Origin: a virus
Taxonomy: Duplodnaviria > Heunggongvirae > Uroviricota > Caudoviricetes
Length of the DNA: 38,440 bases
IMG/VR virus record: IMGVR_UViG_2663762939_000006
Strand: one strand, 5' to 3'
This document shows, piece after piece, positions 1 through 37,604 of this stretch. The notes beneath the pieces are model-generated. The model was not told where the DNA came from, made no database searches, and was given only the letters and a program-made list of their open reading frames with translations. Position 1 is the first letter of the stretch. Every line of letters begins with the position of its first letter. The position numbers and the translations under genes were made by a program.

Positions 1-1149
1 TTAGATGCTTTTTAACGACGCGAACAGTGCCGCCCATTCGCTATCGGCGCGATAAAAGACCGGCGGCTTGCCGATGGGCGCATTAACGGTCACTTCCCCG
101 CCCCGGAATGCTTCACCCGTCCAGGCATGGACCCAGTTATCCTCCGGCAGATAGAGCGTCCAGTCGCTACGGCCTTCTTCATGCACCGGAGCGACCAGAA
201 TGTCGCGGCCTAACAGGTACTGATATTTCAGGGTGTAGGTCTGCGCGTCGTCTTCGTAATGCAGGAACAGCGGGCGCATGACCGGCAGACCGGACTTCGC
301 ATTCAGCGCGACGGCCTCTTTCAGATAAGGTTTCAGGGTGGTGAAGACGGTGGTCATACGGGCGAAATGGGCGATGGTTTCCGCGTCGCCGTCAAACTGC
401 CAGTTGTCGCCAGGACGGTTACCTTCGTGGGTGCGCATCATCGGCGTGAAGGCGCTGAAATCGCACCAGCGCAGCAGCAGCTCTTTGCTGCGCTTCATCT
501 CAAACAGGGTGGTGTAACCGCCAATGTCGCTGTGATGCAGGCCATGTCCGGTCATTGCCAGCGACAGCGCCGCCGGGACAACCGACGCCAGGCCATCGTC
601 GAGACTCCAGTCGACGTTCTGGTCGCCCGCCCACATCATGGTGGAGTATTTCTGGCTACCGGTAGAACCGGCGCGCATAAAGAAGAGGATCTCGCCGAGC
701 TTGCCCGTTTCTTCAAGGGCTTCGTAGTTACATTTCGCCCACAGCGCAGGCCAGGCGTTATGCATAATTTCCGCGCTGACGCCGTTATGCAGGTACGTGT
801 CGGTGGGCAGATACTCGCCGAAGTCAGCCATCCAGCCGCCGCAGCCAAGTTCAATCATGTTCTTTTTGATCACTTCCTTGAACCAGGCGTAGGCTTCTGG
901 ATTGGTGAGGTCGACAACGCCGCCATAGAACTCGCCAAACTCCACCAGATAGTCGCCGCCAGAGGCATCTTTTGCCAGATAACCGCGCTTTGCCGCCTCT
1001 TCGCAGAGATCTTTATCGCTGGCTACATACGGGTTGATATAGGCCAGGAACTGCACGCCCTCTTTGTTCCACTGCTTAATACGTGAGTCCAGTTGCGGAT
1101 AGTTTTCGCTGTTCCACTTCCAGTTGATGCGCCGCGCGATAAATGCACT
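1..1149 (-). pseudogene. yihQ: 3' portion of a GH31 glycoside hydrolase gene (YihQ/sulfoquinovosidase-like); upstream half missing, in-frame stop at 1150-1152
   Basis: ORF 1..1056 translation carries GH31-like motifs (GGWMADFGEYLP); frame stays open upstream to 1149 (..NWKWNSENYPQLD..) then stops; only ~380 codons present where ~680 are expected from memory. Confidence 0.55.
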
Positions 1150-1202
1150 CTATCTTGTGCGATAAATGGCATCCACGCGGCGTTTCATTATTTGAAAAAG
1201 AA

Positions 1203-1775
1203 TTACATTTCAGGTTGCGTTATGACAGTCCCAACAGGGTGGTAGCGGTAGATCGTTGACAGTCCAATATCATAGATAATTGCCAGCCGCTTTCTGTCAT
1301 ACCCTTTCTGGAGCAATCTTGCGATCTGCTCATGCTGCTCCTTCGTCAGTTTCGGGCGACGTCCTCCAACTCTCCCTTGTGCTCGCGCAGCAGCCAGTCC
1401 TGCCAGCGTGCGCTCAACTATCAGTTCACGCTCCATTTCTGCCAGTGCACCCATCATATGAAAAAAGAACCTTCCCATCGGAGTGCTGGTATCGATTGAA
1501 TCCGTCAGACTGCGAAAATTGACACCTTTTGCGCGTAGCTCTTCTGTGAGAGCAATGAGGTGTTTCATTCTTCTACCCAACCGATCCAGCTTCCAGACCA
1601 CCAATGTATCCCCTCTTTTAAGGCACTTTAAAGCGCGTTTCAGGCCTGGTCGTTCCGACTTGGTTCCGCTCATTTTGTCCTCAAAAATCTGTTCACATCC
1701 TGCGCACATTAATGCATTGCGTTGCAAATCTGTGTTTTGGTCATTTGTTGACACACGTATGTAGCCAATCAGCAT
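1203..1775 (-). CDS. gin: serine recombinase, DNA invertase of the Gin/Pin/Cin/Hin family
   Basis: Translation from ATG at 1773-1775 begins MLIGYIRVSTNDQNTDLQRNAL.. (catalytic Ser motif), closely matching Gin/Pin as recalled; SD AAGGGAG upstream; stop TAA at 1203-1205. Confidence 0.9.
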   Translation of the reverse strand: MLIGYIRVSTNDQNTDLQRNALMCAGCEQIFEDKMSGTKSERPGLKRALKCLKRGDTLVVWKLDRLGRRMKHLIALTEELRAKGVNFRSLTDSIDTSTPMGRFFFHMMGALAEMERELIVERTLAGLAAARAQGRVGGRRPKLTKEQHEQIARLLQKGYDRKRLAIIYDIGLSTIYRYHPVGTVITQPEM

Positions 1776-1829
1776 TAAAAATACTCCCTTTTGAGTGGTT
1801 AAAGTACTGAGATAATGTGGGGAGGATTT

Positions 1830-1855
1830 GAGAGATAAACGTTGGTTTGGGGGAA
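1830..1855 (+). other. candidate 26-bp invertase crossover site R3 (gix/hix-like), inverted relative to R1 and R2
   Basis: GAGAGATAAACG TT GGTTTGGGGGAA; shares half-site GGTTTGGGGGAA and TT core with the other two copies; lies ~55 bp upstream of gin as gixR does in Mu. Confidence 0.6.
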
Positions 1856-2308
1856 GGCTCTGCATTGCCTGTTGGTGTACCGGTTCCATGGCCCACCGCC
1901 ACACCGCCAGCAGGCTGGTTACAGTGCAACGGAGCTACGTTCACCAAAGAACAATATCCTGTTCTGGCCAGAGTCTACCCGACCCTCCGTCTTCCCGATT
2001 TGCGCGGTGAGTTTATCCGTGGATGGGACGGTGGTCGCAAGGTTGATACCGGGCGTACGGTACTTTCATTTCAGGAAGGGACTATCGTATCCGGTTTTGA
2101 TGATAATAATACCGGAGATATCAGTTCGCTCGGCTCTACACAATACGGATTTGGTGACGCTTTAACCTCTAATCAACTGGGGGTCATAAATGGCAAAAAG
2201 TGGATATTTGATGCATCCTCTAAAGGTGCACAAAGATATGACTGGTGGGCTTATGTATCAGCTCGCCCCCGCAATATCGCATTTAACTATATCGTGAGGG
2301 CGGCGTGA
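1847..2308 (+). CDS. alternative tail-fibre C-terminal cassette Sv3 (no ATG of its own; opens with the shared GEGSALPVGVPVPWPTATPP repeat)
   Basis: ORF starts at TTG inside the repeat; N-terminal ~65 aa identical or near-identical to an internal segment of the tail-fibre gene; ends ..RPRNIAFNYIVRAA like the other cassettes. Confidence 0.7.
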   Translation: MGEGSALPVGVPVPWPTATPPAGWLQCNGATFTKEQYPVLARVYPTLRLPDLRGEFIRGWDGGRKVDTGRTVLSFQEGTIVSGFDDNNTGDISSLGSTQYGFGDALTSNQLGVINGKKWIFDASSKGAQRYDWWAYVSARPRNIAFNYIVRAA

Positions 2309-2314
2309 TACCGT

Positions 2315-2929
2315 TCAACTGGCAAGTGCCAGTGGTGCTTCCGGCCAGCTGATTTCAGGTGCCGTGCTGATATCCAGTGCGTTCAGCTCGTCGATATAAT
2401 CCAGCACGGCGTTCAGTTTTGCCGTTTCTTCTGGTGTCAGACTGCGACCAGCACGCAGTTTGAGGTTGATAAGATCGACGGACGCCATCGCCTGTTTCAC
2501 CCGTTGCTGGCGTTGCTGTCTGGCAACCTCCAGTTCTGCGGTTCGCTGCCGTTCAGTATCGGTTACCCACGCCTCACCGTTCCAGGTATCCCATGGCGTG
2601 GCTGGCTGTTTTGTGGTGGTGTCCGCCGGGTAATCACCCGGTTGGGTAATCAGAACGGGGTTACCGTTCTCCGTGCTGTATACCGTCTCGCCGCGGTGAT
2701 CAGGCACATGCTCCCACCCGTTCAGCGTGGCAGTCCGGCAAACCACGTAACCCGAAATTGCCTCCGGCGGTGCATCGGCGCACGAATGTGCCGGAGTACC
2801 CACCCCAAGGGCGAGATACTCCACAGAGGATGAGGTGTATTCCCGGGTTTCCTCGTCATAGTGATATACAGTGATATCGCCCGCTACAGTGGCGATACCG
2901 TTTTCATCCAGAACTGCAGTGTTACTCAT
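2315..2929 (-). CDS. tail fibre assembly chaperone (Tfa / Mu U-like)
   Basis: ATG at 2927-2929 overlaps the Sv2 stop (TAATG); C-terminal region ..LTPEETAKLNAVLDYIDELNALDISTAPEISWPEAP is typical of the conserved Tfa chaperone domain. Confidence 0.75.
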   Translation of the reverse strand: MSNTAVLDENGIATVAGDITVYHYDEETREYTSSSVEYLALGVGTPAHSCADAPPEAISGYVVCRTATLNGWEHVPDHRGETVYSTENGNPVLITQPGDYPADTTTKQPATPWDTWNGEAWVTDTERQRTAELEVARQQRQQRVKQAMASVDLINLKLRAGRSLTPEETAKLNAVLDYIDELNALDISTAPEISWPEAPLALAS

Positions 2930-3441
2930 TAAACTGCCCTCACAATGTAATTAAGTGCAATGCTACGGGGTCTGACAGTGATACCCTTCGCATACCCGCT
3001 TCTGATAGAGGTCAGAATAGTAGCCTGCATACCATTGTCTGACATTGCTATGACAGGATCGCTGAATGTTGTCCCGTCCGGCATTTTAAAGCTGCCCTCA
3101 CGAAGGTCTGTAATGGAATCTTCATTGTTGAATCCCATGCCGACTATCCCCGAGGTTCCCGTAGTGTCCTGGTTATAATAATCCAGCATTGCTGTTCTTA
3201 ACAGCGTTGCCCCTTGTGCGGACAGCAACTTACGTCCTGTATCAACTTTGCGCCCGTCGTCCCATCCACGGATAAACTCACCGCGTAAATCGGGAAGACG
3301 GAGGGTCGGGTAGGCTCTGGCCAGAACAGGATATTGTTCTTTTGTAAAGGCGCGCCCGTCGCACTTTAACCAGCCTTCTGGCGGTGTGGCGGTGGGCCAT
3401 GGAACCGGTACACCAACAGGCAATGCAGAGCCTTCCCCCAA
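2929..3441 (-). CDS. alternative tail-fibre C-terminal cassette Sv2 (promoterless, same orientation as the expressed fibre)
   Basis: Begins at TTG within the shared repeat 9 bp after the tail-fibre stop; ends ..NYIVRAV; followed by tfa. Confidence 0.7.
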   Translation of the reverse strand: MGEGSALPVGVPVPWPTATPPEGWLKCDGRAFTKEQYPVLARAYPTLRLPDLRGEFIRGWDDGRKVDTGRKLLSAQGATLLRTAMLDYYNQDTTGTSGIVGMGFNNEDSITDLREGSFKMPDGTTFSDPVIAMSDNGMQATILTSIRSGYAKGITVRPRSIALNYIVRAV

Positions 3442-3458
3442 ACCAACGTTTAGGCCGC
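3433..3458 (-). other. candidate 26-bp invertase crossover site R2 (direct orientation relative to R1)
   Basis: On the minus strand GCGGCCTAAACG TT GGTTTGGGGGAA; ~75 bp around it is identical to R3 in inverted orientation. Confidence 0.55.
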
Positions 3459-4577
3459 CCTGACAATGTAGTTAAAGGCAATATTTCGTGGACGGGTTTC
3501 CCTCCCGCCAGTATTACCGATACTCCCTCGCGAATGAAGTGTTGGTGATGGGGTCAGACTCCCTCCTGTATTTGTGGCATCAAGTCCTCGTCCTTGTGTG
3601 TATGTTTTTTTGAAAATCGCAGCCAGTTCCCATTCATCTTTTGTGTCGTAACCATCATTGGCAACAACAATATGACGGTGTTTCTCAATCATTCCGCTCT
3701 GGCTGCTTAGCAGGGCACGCCCGGTGTCAATCTTTCGTCCGTCATCCCATCCACGGATAAACTCACCGCGCAAATCGGGAAGACGGAGGGTCGGGTAGAC
3801 TCTGGCCAGAACAGGATATTGTTCTTTGGTGAACGTAGCTCCGTTGCACTGTAACCAGCCTGCTGGCGGTGTGGCAGTGGGCCACGGAACAGGTACACCA
3901 ACGGGCAGCGCCGAGCCTTCCCCCAAACCAAGGTAATTGAGGACATCTTTTATACTGCCCTTAGCGATAATAGCGCGACCAATAGCTGTAAGGGTTGCCA
4001 GCGCTGCGCGGTCTGCTCCGGTAAAATAAGGCAACCGATCTGCTGCAGTGGCAAGTCCTGCCAGAGCAGTGAGCGTGGCATCTGCCGGTTGTTTTCCGTT
4101 TGCCAGATCGTATGCAGCCTTGACCGCTTTCGGTGTGGCGGCCAGTATTTCAGACGTGCTGTTGATGGCACTGCTCAGTTGTACGGTGCCTTTTGCCGTC
4201 AGCGAGGCAGCAGGCACTCCCGTTATCTGACTCCACGGGTGAGTGTGGCTGACGGGCGCCTTGCCGGCTGCAAGGTCGTATGCAGCCTTGACGGCTTTTG
4301 GTGTGGCGGCCAGCGTTTCAGAGGTGCTGTTGGTGGCACTGCTCAGTTGGGTGAACCCCTTAGCTGTCAGTGTCGCGTCCGGGTGGTTACGGGAACGTAC
4401 GTGTTCAGCCAGTGACTGTGCGGCTTCCTCCGTTTTTTTCTTCAGCCATTTCGTCCTGTTTGCCAGTTGCCGGGGGGCTCGATTTGATATCCCGTCTGCA
4501 CCACCCAGAACCGGATCTGATGTCTCCAGTTGATAGATATTTTCTTCCCACTTTTCTGTTTCATTCAGGTTTCCCAT
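3450..4577 (-). CDS. tail fibre protein (Mu S / P2 H-like) currently fused to cassette Sv1
   Basis: N-terminus ..NETEKWEENIYQLETSDPVLGG..RQLANRTKWL typical of Mu/P2/lambda side-fibre N-termini; ATG at 4575-4577 with SD GGGAG; stop TAA 3450-3452. Confidence 0.85.
   Translation of the reverse strand: MGNLNETEKWEENIYQLETSDPVLGGADGISNRAPRQLANRTKWLKKKTEEAAQSLAEHVRSRNHPDATLTAKGFTQLSSATNSTSETLAATPKAVKAAYDLAAGKAPVSHTHPWSQITGVPAASLTAKGTVQLSSAINSTSEILAATPKAVKAAYDLANGKQPADATLTALAGLATAADRLPYFTGADRAALATLTAIGRAIIAKGSIKDVLNYLGLGEGSALPVGVPVPWPTATPPAGWLQCNGATFTKEQYPVLARVYPTLRLPDLRGEFIRGWDDGRKIDTGRALLSSQSGMIEKHRHIVVANDGYDTKDEWELAAIFKKTYTQGRGLDATNTGGSLTPSPTLHSRGSIGNTGGRETRPRNIAFNYIVRAA
3918..3943 (-). other. 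candidate 26-bp invertase crossover site R1 inside the tail-fibre gene (constant/variable boundary)
   Basis: On the minus strand TCCTCAATTACC TT GGTTTGGGGGAA; about 17 of 26 positions match the Hin hixL site TTATCAAAAACCTTGGTTTTCAAGAA as recalled. Confidence 0.6.
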
Positions 4578-4579
4578 AA

Positions 4580-5158
4580 TCAACTGCTCCCGTGGTTATA
4601 ACTGCCATCATGGATGGCTGTATTGTTATAGCGAATGGCCACAGACTGATACTCCAGGCTGGCCAGATGGCAGCGGGCCGGTGCAAATGCAGCCAGCGTC
4701 TGACGCAGCATCGCGGCCTGATCGTTAGTAATGGGCTGTTTCAGAATAACGCGATAAACTGCCCAGGCGGCTGCATCTCCATGAACAAACAGTCCGTTAT
4801 AGCTGCGATTGCCGTCGTAACTGAGACGACCTGTGCCTTCAATCAGATCCACTTCACCAAAGCCAAAACGGCGGATAACTTCCCGGATTGACCACGGCGT
4901 CCCTTTATACCGGTGCAGTTCGATGGCTGCTTTTATAAGCATGCGGCGAACATCGTCCGATTCCGCCAGCTCCCAGCCATCGCCAGACAGTGAGAACTGC
5001 TCGCCCAGCCATGGCAGCGCGGAACTGTCGACGATATCGACGAGAAAGACCATCAGTACGCTCAGGTCGATGTTATCCAGCCGTCCTGCCAGTCTTCCCA
5101 GCGTCCTGAGACTGATATCACCCTCAAGCGGTGGCGGGAGTTGTAATGGCTCAGTCAT
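4580..5158 (-). CDS. tail protein (Mu gp48 / P2 gpI-like)
   Basis: Position between baseplate J and tail fibre; start ATG overlaps upstream stop (ATGACTGA); size and composition fit the family. Confidence 0.65.
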   Translation of the reverse strand: MTEPLQLPPPLEGDISLRTLGRLAGRLDNIDLSVLMVFLVDIVDSSALPWLGEQFSLSGDGWELAESDDVRRMLIKAAIELHRYKGTPWSIREVIRRFGFGEVDLIEGTGRLSYDGNRSYNGLFVHGDAAAWAVYRVILKQPITNDQAAMLRQTLAAFAPARCHLASLEYQSVAIRYNNTAIHDGSYNHGSS

Positions 5159-37528: not shown

Positions 37529-37573
37529 TTCCTGCTTGTTAAAGTCCTTTCAAAAATCTCCTTATTGTATAAA

Positions 37574-37604
37574 AGCACGGTAGACCCCTTACCGTGCTTT
37601 TTTT
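37574..37604 (+). terminator. rho-independent terminator after the Mor-like gene
   Basis: 9-bp stem AGCACGGTA/TACCGTGCT, 7-nt loop, then TTTTTT. Confidence 0.8.

Follow-up and report, generated by a model that had tools for sequence, protein, structure and literature searches.

A single tail-fibre assembly gene beside three invertible collar-tip cassettes in a BcepMu-like prophage, and its likeness to Min-type DNA inversion regions

In phages Mu and P1 each alternative tail-fibre tip is paired with its own assembly chaperone, and the P2-like pro483, 'P2 magyaro', Omnitron and Kp4847-2 do likewise, a collar tip going with a 'long' Tfa of 200 amino acids and a non-collar tip with a 'short' Tfa of 147 amino acids. 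Plasmid p15B carries the Min system of multiple DNA inversion, reportedly described by Sandmeier, Iida and Arber in 1990-1992. In prophage Phi2 of EC958 the orientations of a segment of about 2.07 kb were assembled separately (as a separate contig) from PacBio reads, which showed that recombination takes place (PMC4134206). Here we analyse the left 4.6 kb of a stretch of 38,440 nucleotides, the Caudoviricetes record IMGVR_UViG_2663762939_000006 of IMG/VR, which as a whole is called the window. It carries a BcepMu-like transposable prophage that has a P2-type baseplate and belongs to the EC958 Phi2 family, and in its tail-fibre region three tip cassettes, Sv1, Sv2 and Sv3, lie beside only one tail-fibre assembly gene, tfa. 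An earlier note on this DNA had judged the single tfa by the standard of Mu and P1. What it said of these two phages holds, but they are not the right comparator, since the multiple-inversion regions of the p15B Min type, in which a single tfa goes with 4, 6 or 9 collar cassettes, fit instead.

Our results show that a Pin/Min-type serine invertase brings one of three collar tips of the gp37-like kind into frame with the constant shaft of the fibre. As far as the compared sequences go, a single tfa alongside many cassettes is a conserved design of Min-type regions and not an anomaly of the window. The best explanation, in which we have moderate confidence, is that one shared, tip-agnostic Tfa of the collar class works within a three-site, four-isomer switch of the Min type. 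The apparent anomaly is removed by the comparison with Min-type regions, because having more tips than chaperones is the standard layout of fibre genes that are shuffled in this way, and roughly one in seven complete E. coli genomes carries such genes.

The inversion switch and its isomers

Read along the + strand, the locus consists of a remnant of a GH31 gene, the invertase gene, Sv3, tfa, Sv2, the fibre gene, and the P2-type gpI and baseplate J genes (Table 1). The three cassettes lie within 1830-3943, Sv1 being joined to the constant part of the fibre gene (Sc), and each begins at a 26-bp invertase crossover site (R1, R2 and R3 for Sv1, Sv2 and Sv3, respectively). Three repeats of about 220 nucleotides, 87-93% identical, two of them direct (3717-3934 and 3232-3449) and one inverted (1836-2067), each terminate in such a site of the form TTCCCCCAAACC-AA-N12, and the core dinucleotide (AA/TT) is common to all three. 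By pattern search R2 is direct with R1 and R3 is inverted. Every Sv is made of a conserved collar N-terminal half, an unrelated insert of 67-84 amino acids, and a conserved C-terminal RPR(N/S)IA(F/L)NYIVRA(A/V). The locus thus has what defines a switch of the Din family (Gin/Hin/Cin/Pin/Min), namely, an invertase with resolvase and helix-turn-helix (HTH) domains, inverted 26-bp sites with identical cores inside the fibre open reading frame, and actual inversion. It also has what defines the Min type, since more than two crossover sites give overlapping invertible segments and more than two isomers. The paired cassettes of Mu G and P1 C, on the other hand, were not found, because six-frame searches gave one Caudo_TAP for three cassettes.

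Four isomers are predicted from the three sites by recombination of R1 with R3, of R2 with R3, and by their products, and all four are present among deposited E. coli genomes. Isomer A, in which Sc is joined to Sv1 and is followed by Sv2-tfa in the same orientation and by Sv3 in the opposite one, is found in the window and in L001. Isomer B, found in L093, has Sc joined to Sv3, with tfa, Sv2 and Sv1 all facing it. In isomer C, found in L004, Sc is joined to Sv2-tfa, and Sv3 and Sv1 lie in the opposite orientation. Isomer D, found in strain ECAMP047 (L007), has Sc joined to Sv1 and followed by Sv3 in the same orientation, with tfa and Sv2 facing them. Isomers C and D require recombination at R2, which implies that this internal site is used. 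The prediction of the earlier note that inversion between R1 and R3 would turn tfa antisense to the fibre transcript was correct, and this isomer is the one seen in L093 and, in a two-cassette form, in L005. The two-cassette form (Sv2-tfa and Sv3) is that of E. coli 83972, of which two independent assemblies differ only by the inversion. In-frame fusions of Sc to Sv2 (L006) and of Sc to Sv3 (L005) are annotated as intact genes. The crossover site known as 'Phi2_3prime' in EC958 is identical in sequence to R3, and R1 is the nearly identical counterpart of 'Phi2_5prime'; the sites of the window also agree with the published consensus.

How often each junction occurs was determined with queries specific for it in a set of 5426 complete E. 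coli genomes, and 799 of these, roughly one in seven, were matched. The Sc-Sv3 junction was present in 200 genomes, the Sc-Sv2 junction in 327, and the Sc-Sv1 junction of the window type in 18, while about 222 further genomes, most of them ST131, show an A-like arrangement in which the first cassette is another one (Sv1'). In the draft genome of Escherichia sp. MOD1-EC7003 (L026, L024, L041) the assembly is broken into contigs of 1-1.7 kb at collar cassettes, which is consistent with a mixed isomer population of a related multi-cassette segment. The fibre shaft itself is polymorphic in length: the fibre of the window (376 amino acids) equals that of ECAMP047 (599 amino acids; L007 2537-4336) minus exactly four tandem copies of a repeat of 56 amino acids (…TAKGTVQLSSAINSTSE…SHTHPWSQITGVPAASL).

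One tfa in the window and how it could be shared

Three cassettes and one tfa had been counted in the earlier note, and profile searches in all six frames bear this out. Only the tfa at 2315-2929 was returned when 1150-4000 was scanned in six frames against Pfam at E<=1 and when the whole window was searched by tblastn with Tfa. A local Tfa hidden Markov model run with filters off at E<=10 against all six-frame segments of the window also returned one, the next best hit having E=0.63, and thus a second tfa-like frame was not found in the window by sensitive profile search. The four reading frames occupy the segment fully and leave no space for an additional gene. An intramolecular chaperone or another domain within Sv1 or Sv3 was considered and rejected, because Pfam shows neither a chaperone-type domain nor any domain other than Collar in these two cassettes.

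Both junctions of tfa with its neighbours are as the earlier note had read them. The TAA of Sv2 and the ATG of tfa have one base in common (TTTAATGAG, - strand), which gives the TAATG coupling, and Sv3 converges on the 3' end of tfa with the stops 6 nucleotides apart (gap 2309-2314), a spacing that recurs as 5-6 nucleotides in L005, L094 and L095. Only Sv2 has tfa coupled directly downstream in this manner, and neither Sv1 nor Sv3 does. It is misleading, however, to say that the expressed Sv1 has no chaperone, because in isomer A tfa lies on the same strand as Sv1, 521 nucleotides downstream of the Sv1 stop, and it has its own GAGGG Shine-Dalgarno sequence, which is placed 7 nucleotides ahead of the ATG and formed by the conserved VRA codons that end the preceding cassette. 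A search for terminators found none above the expectation from shuffled sequence and no terminator-like hairpin on the - strand between 2929 and 3450. The cassette-end codons in question, GT(G/C) AGG GC(A/G) for the VRA residues (2930-2945, 2294-2308, 3450-3465), double as Shine-Dalgarno sequence for a downstream tfa and are kept in Sv1 and Sv3 though neither has a following gene.

Tfa scores 98.2 bits against PF02413, for which the gathering cut-off is 22.1, and it is made of a collar-associated N-terminal domain (about residues 1-78) and a Caudo_TAP C-terminal region. Of the 72 Tfa encoded directly behind a collar tip 67 have this N-terminal domain, and of 34 other Tfa none has it. Its identity does not track that of the inserts: over 52 distinct tip-Tfa pairs the Spearman correlation between the two is 0.15, equal to the value for the C-terminal domain, and in thirteen pairs N-terminal domains that are >=80% identical go with inserts that are <=30% identical (98% and 24%, for example, in L031/L044). 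We infer from these comparisons that the N-terminal domain probably recognises the conserved collar and the C-terminal strand and not the variable insert. If the N-terminal domain follows the conserved scaffold and ignores the insert, then one copy can serve every cassette and per-tip chaperones would be unnecessary. An AlphaFold2 (AF2) model of Tfa made from the single sequence, with no alignment, has a predicted local distance difference test score (pLDDT) of 51, too low for a comparison of folds, and only two C-terminal helices, at 123-158 and 165-183, reach about 75. A sequence search of the PDB with Tfa gave no meaningful match.

With a shared Tfa the four isomers would differ in how the chaperone is supplied. 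In isomer A the transcript would carry Sc-Sv1, an untranslated Sv2, and tfa, and Tfa would be made from it by way of its own ribosome-binding site; co-transcription is expected because tfa is on the same strand, has the GAGGG Shine-Dalgarno sequence, and is not separated from Sv1 by any terminator-like site. In isomer C, Sc-Sv2-tfa, the gene would likewise be on the fibre transcript. It is only in isomers B and D that tfa is antisense to the fibre gene, facing Sc-Sv3 in B and Sc-Sv1 followed by Sv3 in D. In these two isomers weak transcription that enters the segment on the invertase side might provide Tfa, another prophage might supply it, or folding of the tip might be less efficient in its absence.

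Chaperone requirement of collar tips and alternative explanations

All three Sv match Pfam Collar (PF07484) with E=2e-15 to 3e-16 overall in the class test (Sv3 E=7e-16), and the collar profile matches the receptor-binding tip of T4 gp37 (2XGF, E=3.7e-26; 9CUY, E=1.6e-26) as well as T4 gp12 (1OCY, E=2e-7). T4 gp37 requires gp38 and gp57A, and lambda Tfa was reportedly found able to substitute for gp38 in gp37 assembly (Hashemolhosseini 1996). In phage phiR1-37 the collar fibre Gp298, with 38% identity to residues 25-152 in the match with Sv3 (H96), fails to trimerise without its Caudo_TAP partner Gp297, which remains bound (PMC13030884). The earlier note had allowed that Sv1 and Sv3 could belong to a fibre class that folds alone. 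In our survey of 79 loci from other Enterobacterales, outside the Phi2 family and with 97 collar tips, Tfa was directly downstream of 65 tips. Since these 65 have a coupled long Tfa and Gp298 requires a partner, the idea that collar tips are a chaperone-free class was rejected; on these sequences and the published cases the class is normally coupled to a chaperone, with exceptions. Among the exceptions are orphan short fibre genes of Xenorhabdus and Yersinia, a P2-like fibre gene directly before a sheath gene (L032), and the invertible segments of Photorhabdus (L047) and Arsenophonus (L053), which have fewer tfa than tips, or none. Stand-alone fibre genes of 230-290 amino acids with one repeat and a collar tip were observed in Xenorhabdus, Yersinia and Photorhabdus (L014, L016, L052, L055, L079). 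Their neighbours are housekeeping genes, a tfa, an invertase gene or a phage gene is not present within 6 kb, and the closest homologues of the Sv3 insert are among them.

Several findings weigh against a shared Tfa. The remaining 32 of the 97 surveyed tips have no adjacent tfa, and thus the chaperone may be dispensable for some tips. Shared use is demonstrably possible in only two of the four isomers, because in B and D tfa runs antisense to the fibre gene and a scan of 1100-4700 gave no promoter of the sigma-70 consensus (0 sites, against 3.0 expected in shuffled sequences). Lastly, the published structural model for Mu/Pam3 puts the N-terminal domain of Tfa on the distal fibre tip, and in these collar tips the distal part would be the variable insert. 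The likeliest of three rivals, although we consider it rather unlikely, is that Tfa is specific to Sv2 and that Sv1 and Sv3 fold and trimerise without any Tfa. Besides the tips that lack a tfa, including the L032 fibre gene that runs directly into the sheath gene and the L047 and L053 segments, it would account for the absence of tfa at three of the four closest Sv3-type homologues (Xenorhabdus L014-L016, 61-64% insert identity) and for the 200 E. coli genomes in which Sc is joined to Sv3 with tfa antisense. However, many collar genes that stand alone are orphans with no phage context and possibly non-functional, Gp298 with its likeness to Sv3 needs its partner, tips of the Sv3 type (L017) and of the ST131 Sv1' type (L036 and mEp043) do have a tfa, and a Tfa that is specific to Sv2 is not what would be expected from an N-terminal domain that does not co-vary with the inserts.

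It is also conceivable, but in our judgement improbable, that the cassettes without tfa are non-productive, so that phages in states B and D are fibre-defective and adsorb poorly, either through loss of a partner tfa or as a tolerated cost of shuffling. Homologous two-cassette P2-like segments retain one tfa per tip, the 3' end of Sv3 keeps a Shine-Dalgarno-like GTGAGGGCG that precedes tfa in relatives and has no following gene here, the few substitutions in Sv3 between family members are mostly non-synonymous, and the ST131 copies of the fibre gene carry a pseudogene annotation. The substitution counts are, however, too small for inferring selection: there are 0-19 nucleotide substitutions within the family, many of them inside the recombining repeat, which makes the ratio of non-synonymous to synonymous change (dN/dS) uninformative. 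The one-tfa design is kept in modules with a Tfa that is only 56% identical and with unrelated cassettes (L094, L096), a pattern that independent decay would not reproduce. Moreover, all cassettes are intact open frames except one that is frameshifted in L094, and the four different insertion sites of the prophage family (in the GH31 gene in the window, next to aroA, in rstB, and beside clbH) point to recent transposition by a viable phage. Least likely of the three, and in our view very doubtful, is that the antisense isomers obtain Tfa in trans from the tfa genes of other resident prophages or phage-plasmids. A match to the tfa of the window is present in 2869 of the 5426 E. coli genomes, in up to seven places per genome, and long collar-class Tfa with N-terminal domains that are 52-100% identical are found on co-resident P1-like plasmids and P2-like prophages. 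The median, however, is one matching place per genome, so that many hosts are without a second close copy, and the other prophages would have to be induced simultaneously. This census was made by blastn only, which is below protein-level sensitivity and too insensitive to decide the matter.

A more speculative thought, and one that we think will probably prove wrong, is that the orientation of tfa could be a second, hidden layer of the switch that gives four adsorption phenotypes and not three. The Sv1 tip would be accompanied by Tfa in isomer A and lack it in D, Sv2 would be accompanied by it in C, and Sv3 would lack it in B. The thought arises because the Tfa of Mu and of phiR1-37 stay bound to the tip and share in receptor binding. 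If it were true, one inversion system would vary the tip as well as the presence of a cap that is both chaperone and adhesin, and the same logic would extend to the Min arrays of 4-9 cassettes. To return to the shared Tfa that we favour, host-range engineering of phages and tailocins would be simpler if one Tfa folds any collar tip, because an insert of about 60-85 amino acids could be swapped and the chaperone kept. Isomers A and D are natural and near-isogenic and have the same Sv1 tip with tfa in sense and antisense orientation, respectively, and they are therefore suited to asking whether Tfa is needed.

Context of the locus and comparison with known inversion systems

The coordinates of the features are collected in Table 1.

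Table 1. Features of the invertible tail-fibre locus, in positions of the window
Feature	Position	Strand	Basis or remark
Truncated host GH31 gene	1-1056	-	
Serine DNA invertase (Pin/Min/Gin family), last gene at this prophage end	1203-1775	-	Pfam Resolvase PF00239, E=8e-51; HTH_7 PF02796, E=1e-12
Crossover site R3, GAGAGATAAACG TT GGTTTGGGGGAA, inverted relative to R1 and R2	1830-1855		Pattern search
Repeat arm encoding the conserved collar N-terminal half of Sv3, inverted	1836-2067		90-93% complementary to 3221-3452 and 3717-3934
Sv3, silent in the window isomer: collar, variable insert of 67 amino acids, then RPRNIAFNYIVRAA; no tfa behind	1847-2308	+	Pfam Collar, E=7e-16
6-nucleotide gap between the convergent stops of Sv3 (2306-2308) and tfa	2309-2314		Read from the sequence
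tfa, sole tail-fibre assembly gene, 'long' form	2315-2929	-	Pfam PF02413 (Caudo_TAP), E=5.5e-28, residues 79-199
Sv2, silent in the window isomer, TAATG overlap with tfa	2929-3441	-	Pfam Collar, E=3e-16
Crossover site R2, TTCCCCCAAACC AA CGTTTAGGCCGC; outer half-site contains the Sv1 stop codon	3433-3458		Pattern search
Sv1, tip fused to the constant part: collar, insert of 72 amino acids with HRH motif, then RPRNIAFNYIVRAA	3450-3930	-	Pfam Collar, E=2.4e-15
Crossover site R1, TTCCCCCAAACC AA GGTAATTGAGGA, within the expressed fibre gene	3918-3943		Pattern search
Sc, constant 5' part of the tail-fibre gene, Phage_fiber_2 repeats	3931-4577	-	Pfam PF03406, E=1e-38
Intact fibre gene (about 376 amino acids; last 160 codons are Sv1)	3450-4577	-	

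The end of the prophage lies at 1057-1200 of the window, where the host GH31 open reading frame is without its N-terminal part from about 1056-1125, and at the junction there are two copies of GCGATAAATG(C/G) that resemble the terminal transposase-binding repeats of the Mu type. At 37560-37595, close to the right end of the window, the early-region genes are followed by a strong terminator-like hairpin, AAAAGCACGGTAGACCCCTTACCGTGCTTTTTTT. Between the invertase start and R3 an extended -10-like TGAGATAAT was noticed by eye at 1808-1816 (+), pointing into the segment. It was missed by the consensus scan, it is present only in the intergenic region of the Phi2 family, and it overlaps a possible -10 of the invertase (CATTAT) on the opposite strand; that it is a promoter feeding the segment is speculation.

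The module is not confined to this family of prophages. Several P1-like plasmids of about 92-96 kb (including H134-H137) match 90% of window 1203-3945 at 96-97.6% nucleotide identity. On one plasmid, pCUVET20-PYO4.3 (L095, 3845-7020), Sv1 (89% insert identity), Sv2 (100%), tfa (94%), Sv3 (99%), the ST131 cassette, and the invertase (99%) were all found. Sv1 of the window is identical in ECAMP047, and the insert that is 89% identical is the one on P1-like plasmids. Identities of 96-99% imply that this invertible host-range module of invertase, cassettes and tfa has been exchanged recently and horizontally between unrelated phage types.

Among the described systems Phi2 of EC958 (ST131; Forde et al. 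2014, PMC4134206) belongs to the same element family, its fibre is likewise made of Phage_fiber_2 and Collar, and its invertible segment of about 2.07 kb compares with 2089 bp from R1 to R3 in the window. It differs in that its first cassette is Sv1' and in that it is inserted next to aroA and not in the GH31 gene. As described, Phi2 has two sites in mirror-image arrangement with a cognate gene downstream of each allele; that paper (PMC4134206) does not describe an internal third site, four isomers or a single tfa as in the window. With T4 gp37 and Gp298 of phiR1-37 the window shares the fold class of the tip and, for Gp298, a partner of the Caudo_TAP type (Gp297). The inserts of the window are, however, much shorter (56-84 amino acids) than the T4 and phiR1-37 tips, the HxH motif is present only in Sv1, and T4 and phiR1-37 have no inversion system and pair their genes strictly 1:1. 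The Mu G, P1 C and pro483-type segments have an adjacent invertase, crossover sites inside the fibre open reading frame and an in-frame exchange of the 3' end, as in the window, and the collar tip with long Tfa of the pro483-type arm is homologous to that of the window (Tfa 57% identical). These segments have two cassettes, each with its own tfa (U and U', or long and short Tfa), unlike the window and the Min-type arrays in which tfa follows only one cassette.

The Min-type regions are the closest in layout. Four cassettes, four sites and one tfa are present in L095. In p22AR0747A (L094) there are six collar cassettes, one of them frameshifted, with six half-sites and a single tfa of only 56% identity to that of the window. 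In pMCR_SCKP-LL83 (L096) nine collar cassettes and nine half-sites go with a single tfa, and the isomer that was deposited has this gene in antisense orientation. The authors of PMC5786510 report 99% identity between the pMCR_SCKP-LL83 segment and the min region of p15B, and it is on this stated identity that the link of the window to p15B min rests. As in the window, a Pin/Min-type serine invertase adjoins the segment; the invertase of the window is 99% identical to the L095 recombinase and 84% identical to that of L096. The Min-like regions and the window also have in common more than two 26-bp sites inside the tail-fibre gene, all with the half-site GGTTTxGGxGAA, and 3' cassettes of about 150 amino acids with a collar domain that are arrayed in both orientations. 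In L094, L095 and L096, as in the window, there is exactly one tfa, which overlaps one cassette and converges on another with a gap of 5-6 nucleotides. The differences are that the window has three cassettes and four isomers where Min has six or more cassettes, and that the carrier is a BcepMu-like transposable prophage with a P2-type baseplate where that of Min is a P1-like plasmid. In gene content and arrangement, then, the locus appears to be a small, three-cassette member of the p15B Min-type systems that resides in a different phage backbone.

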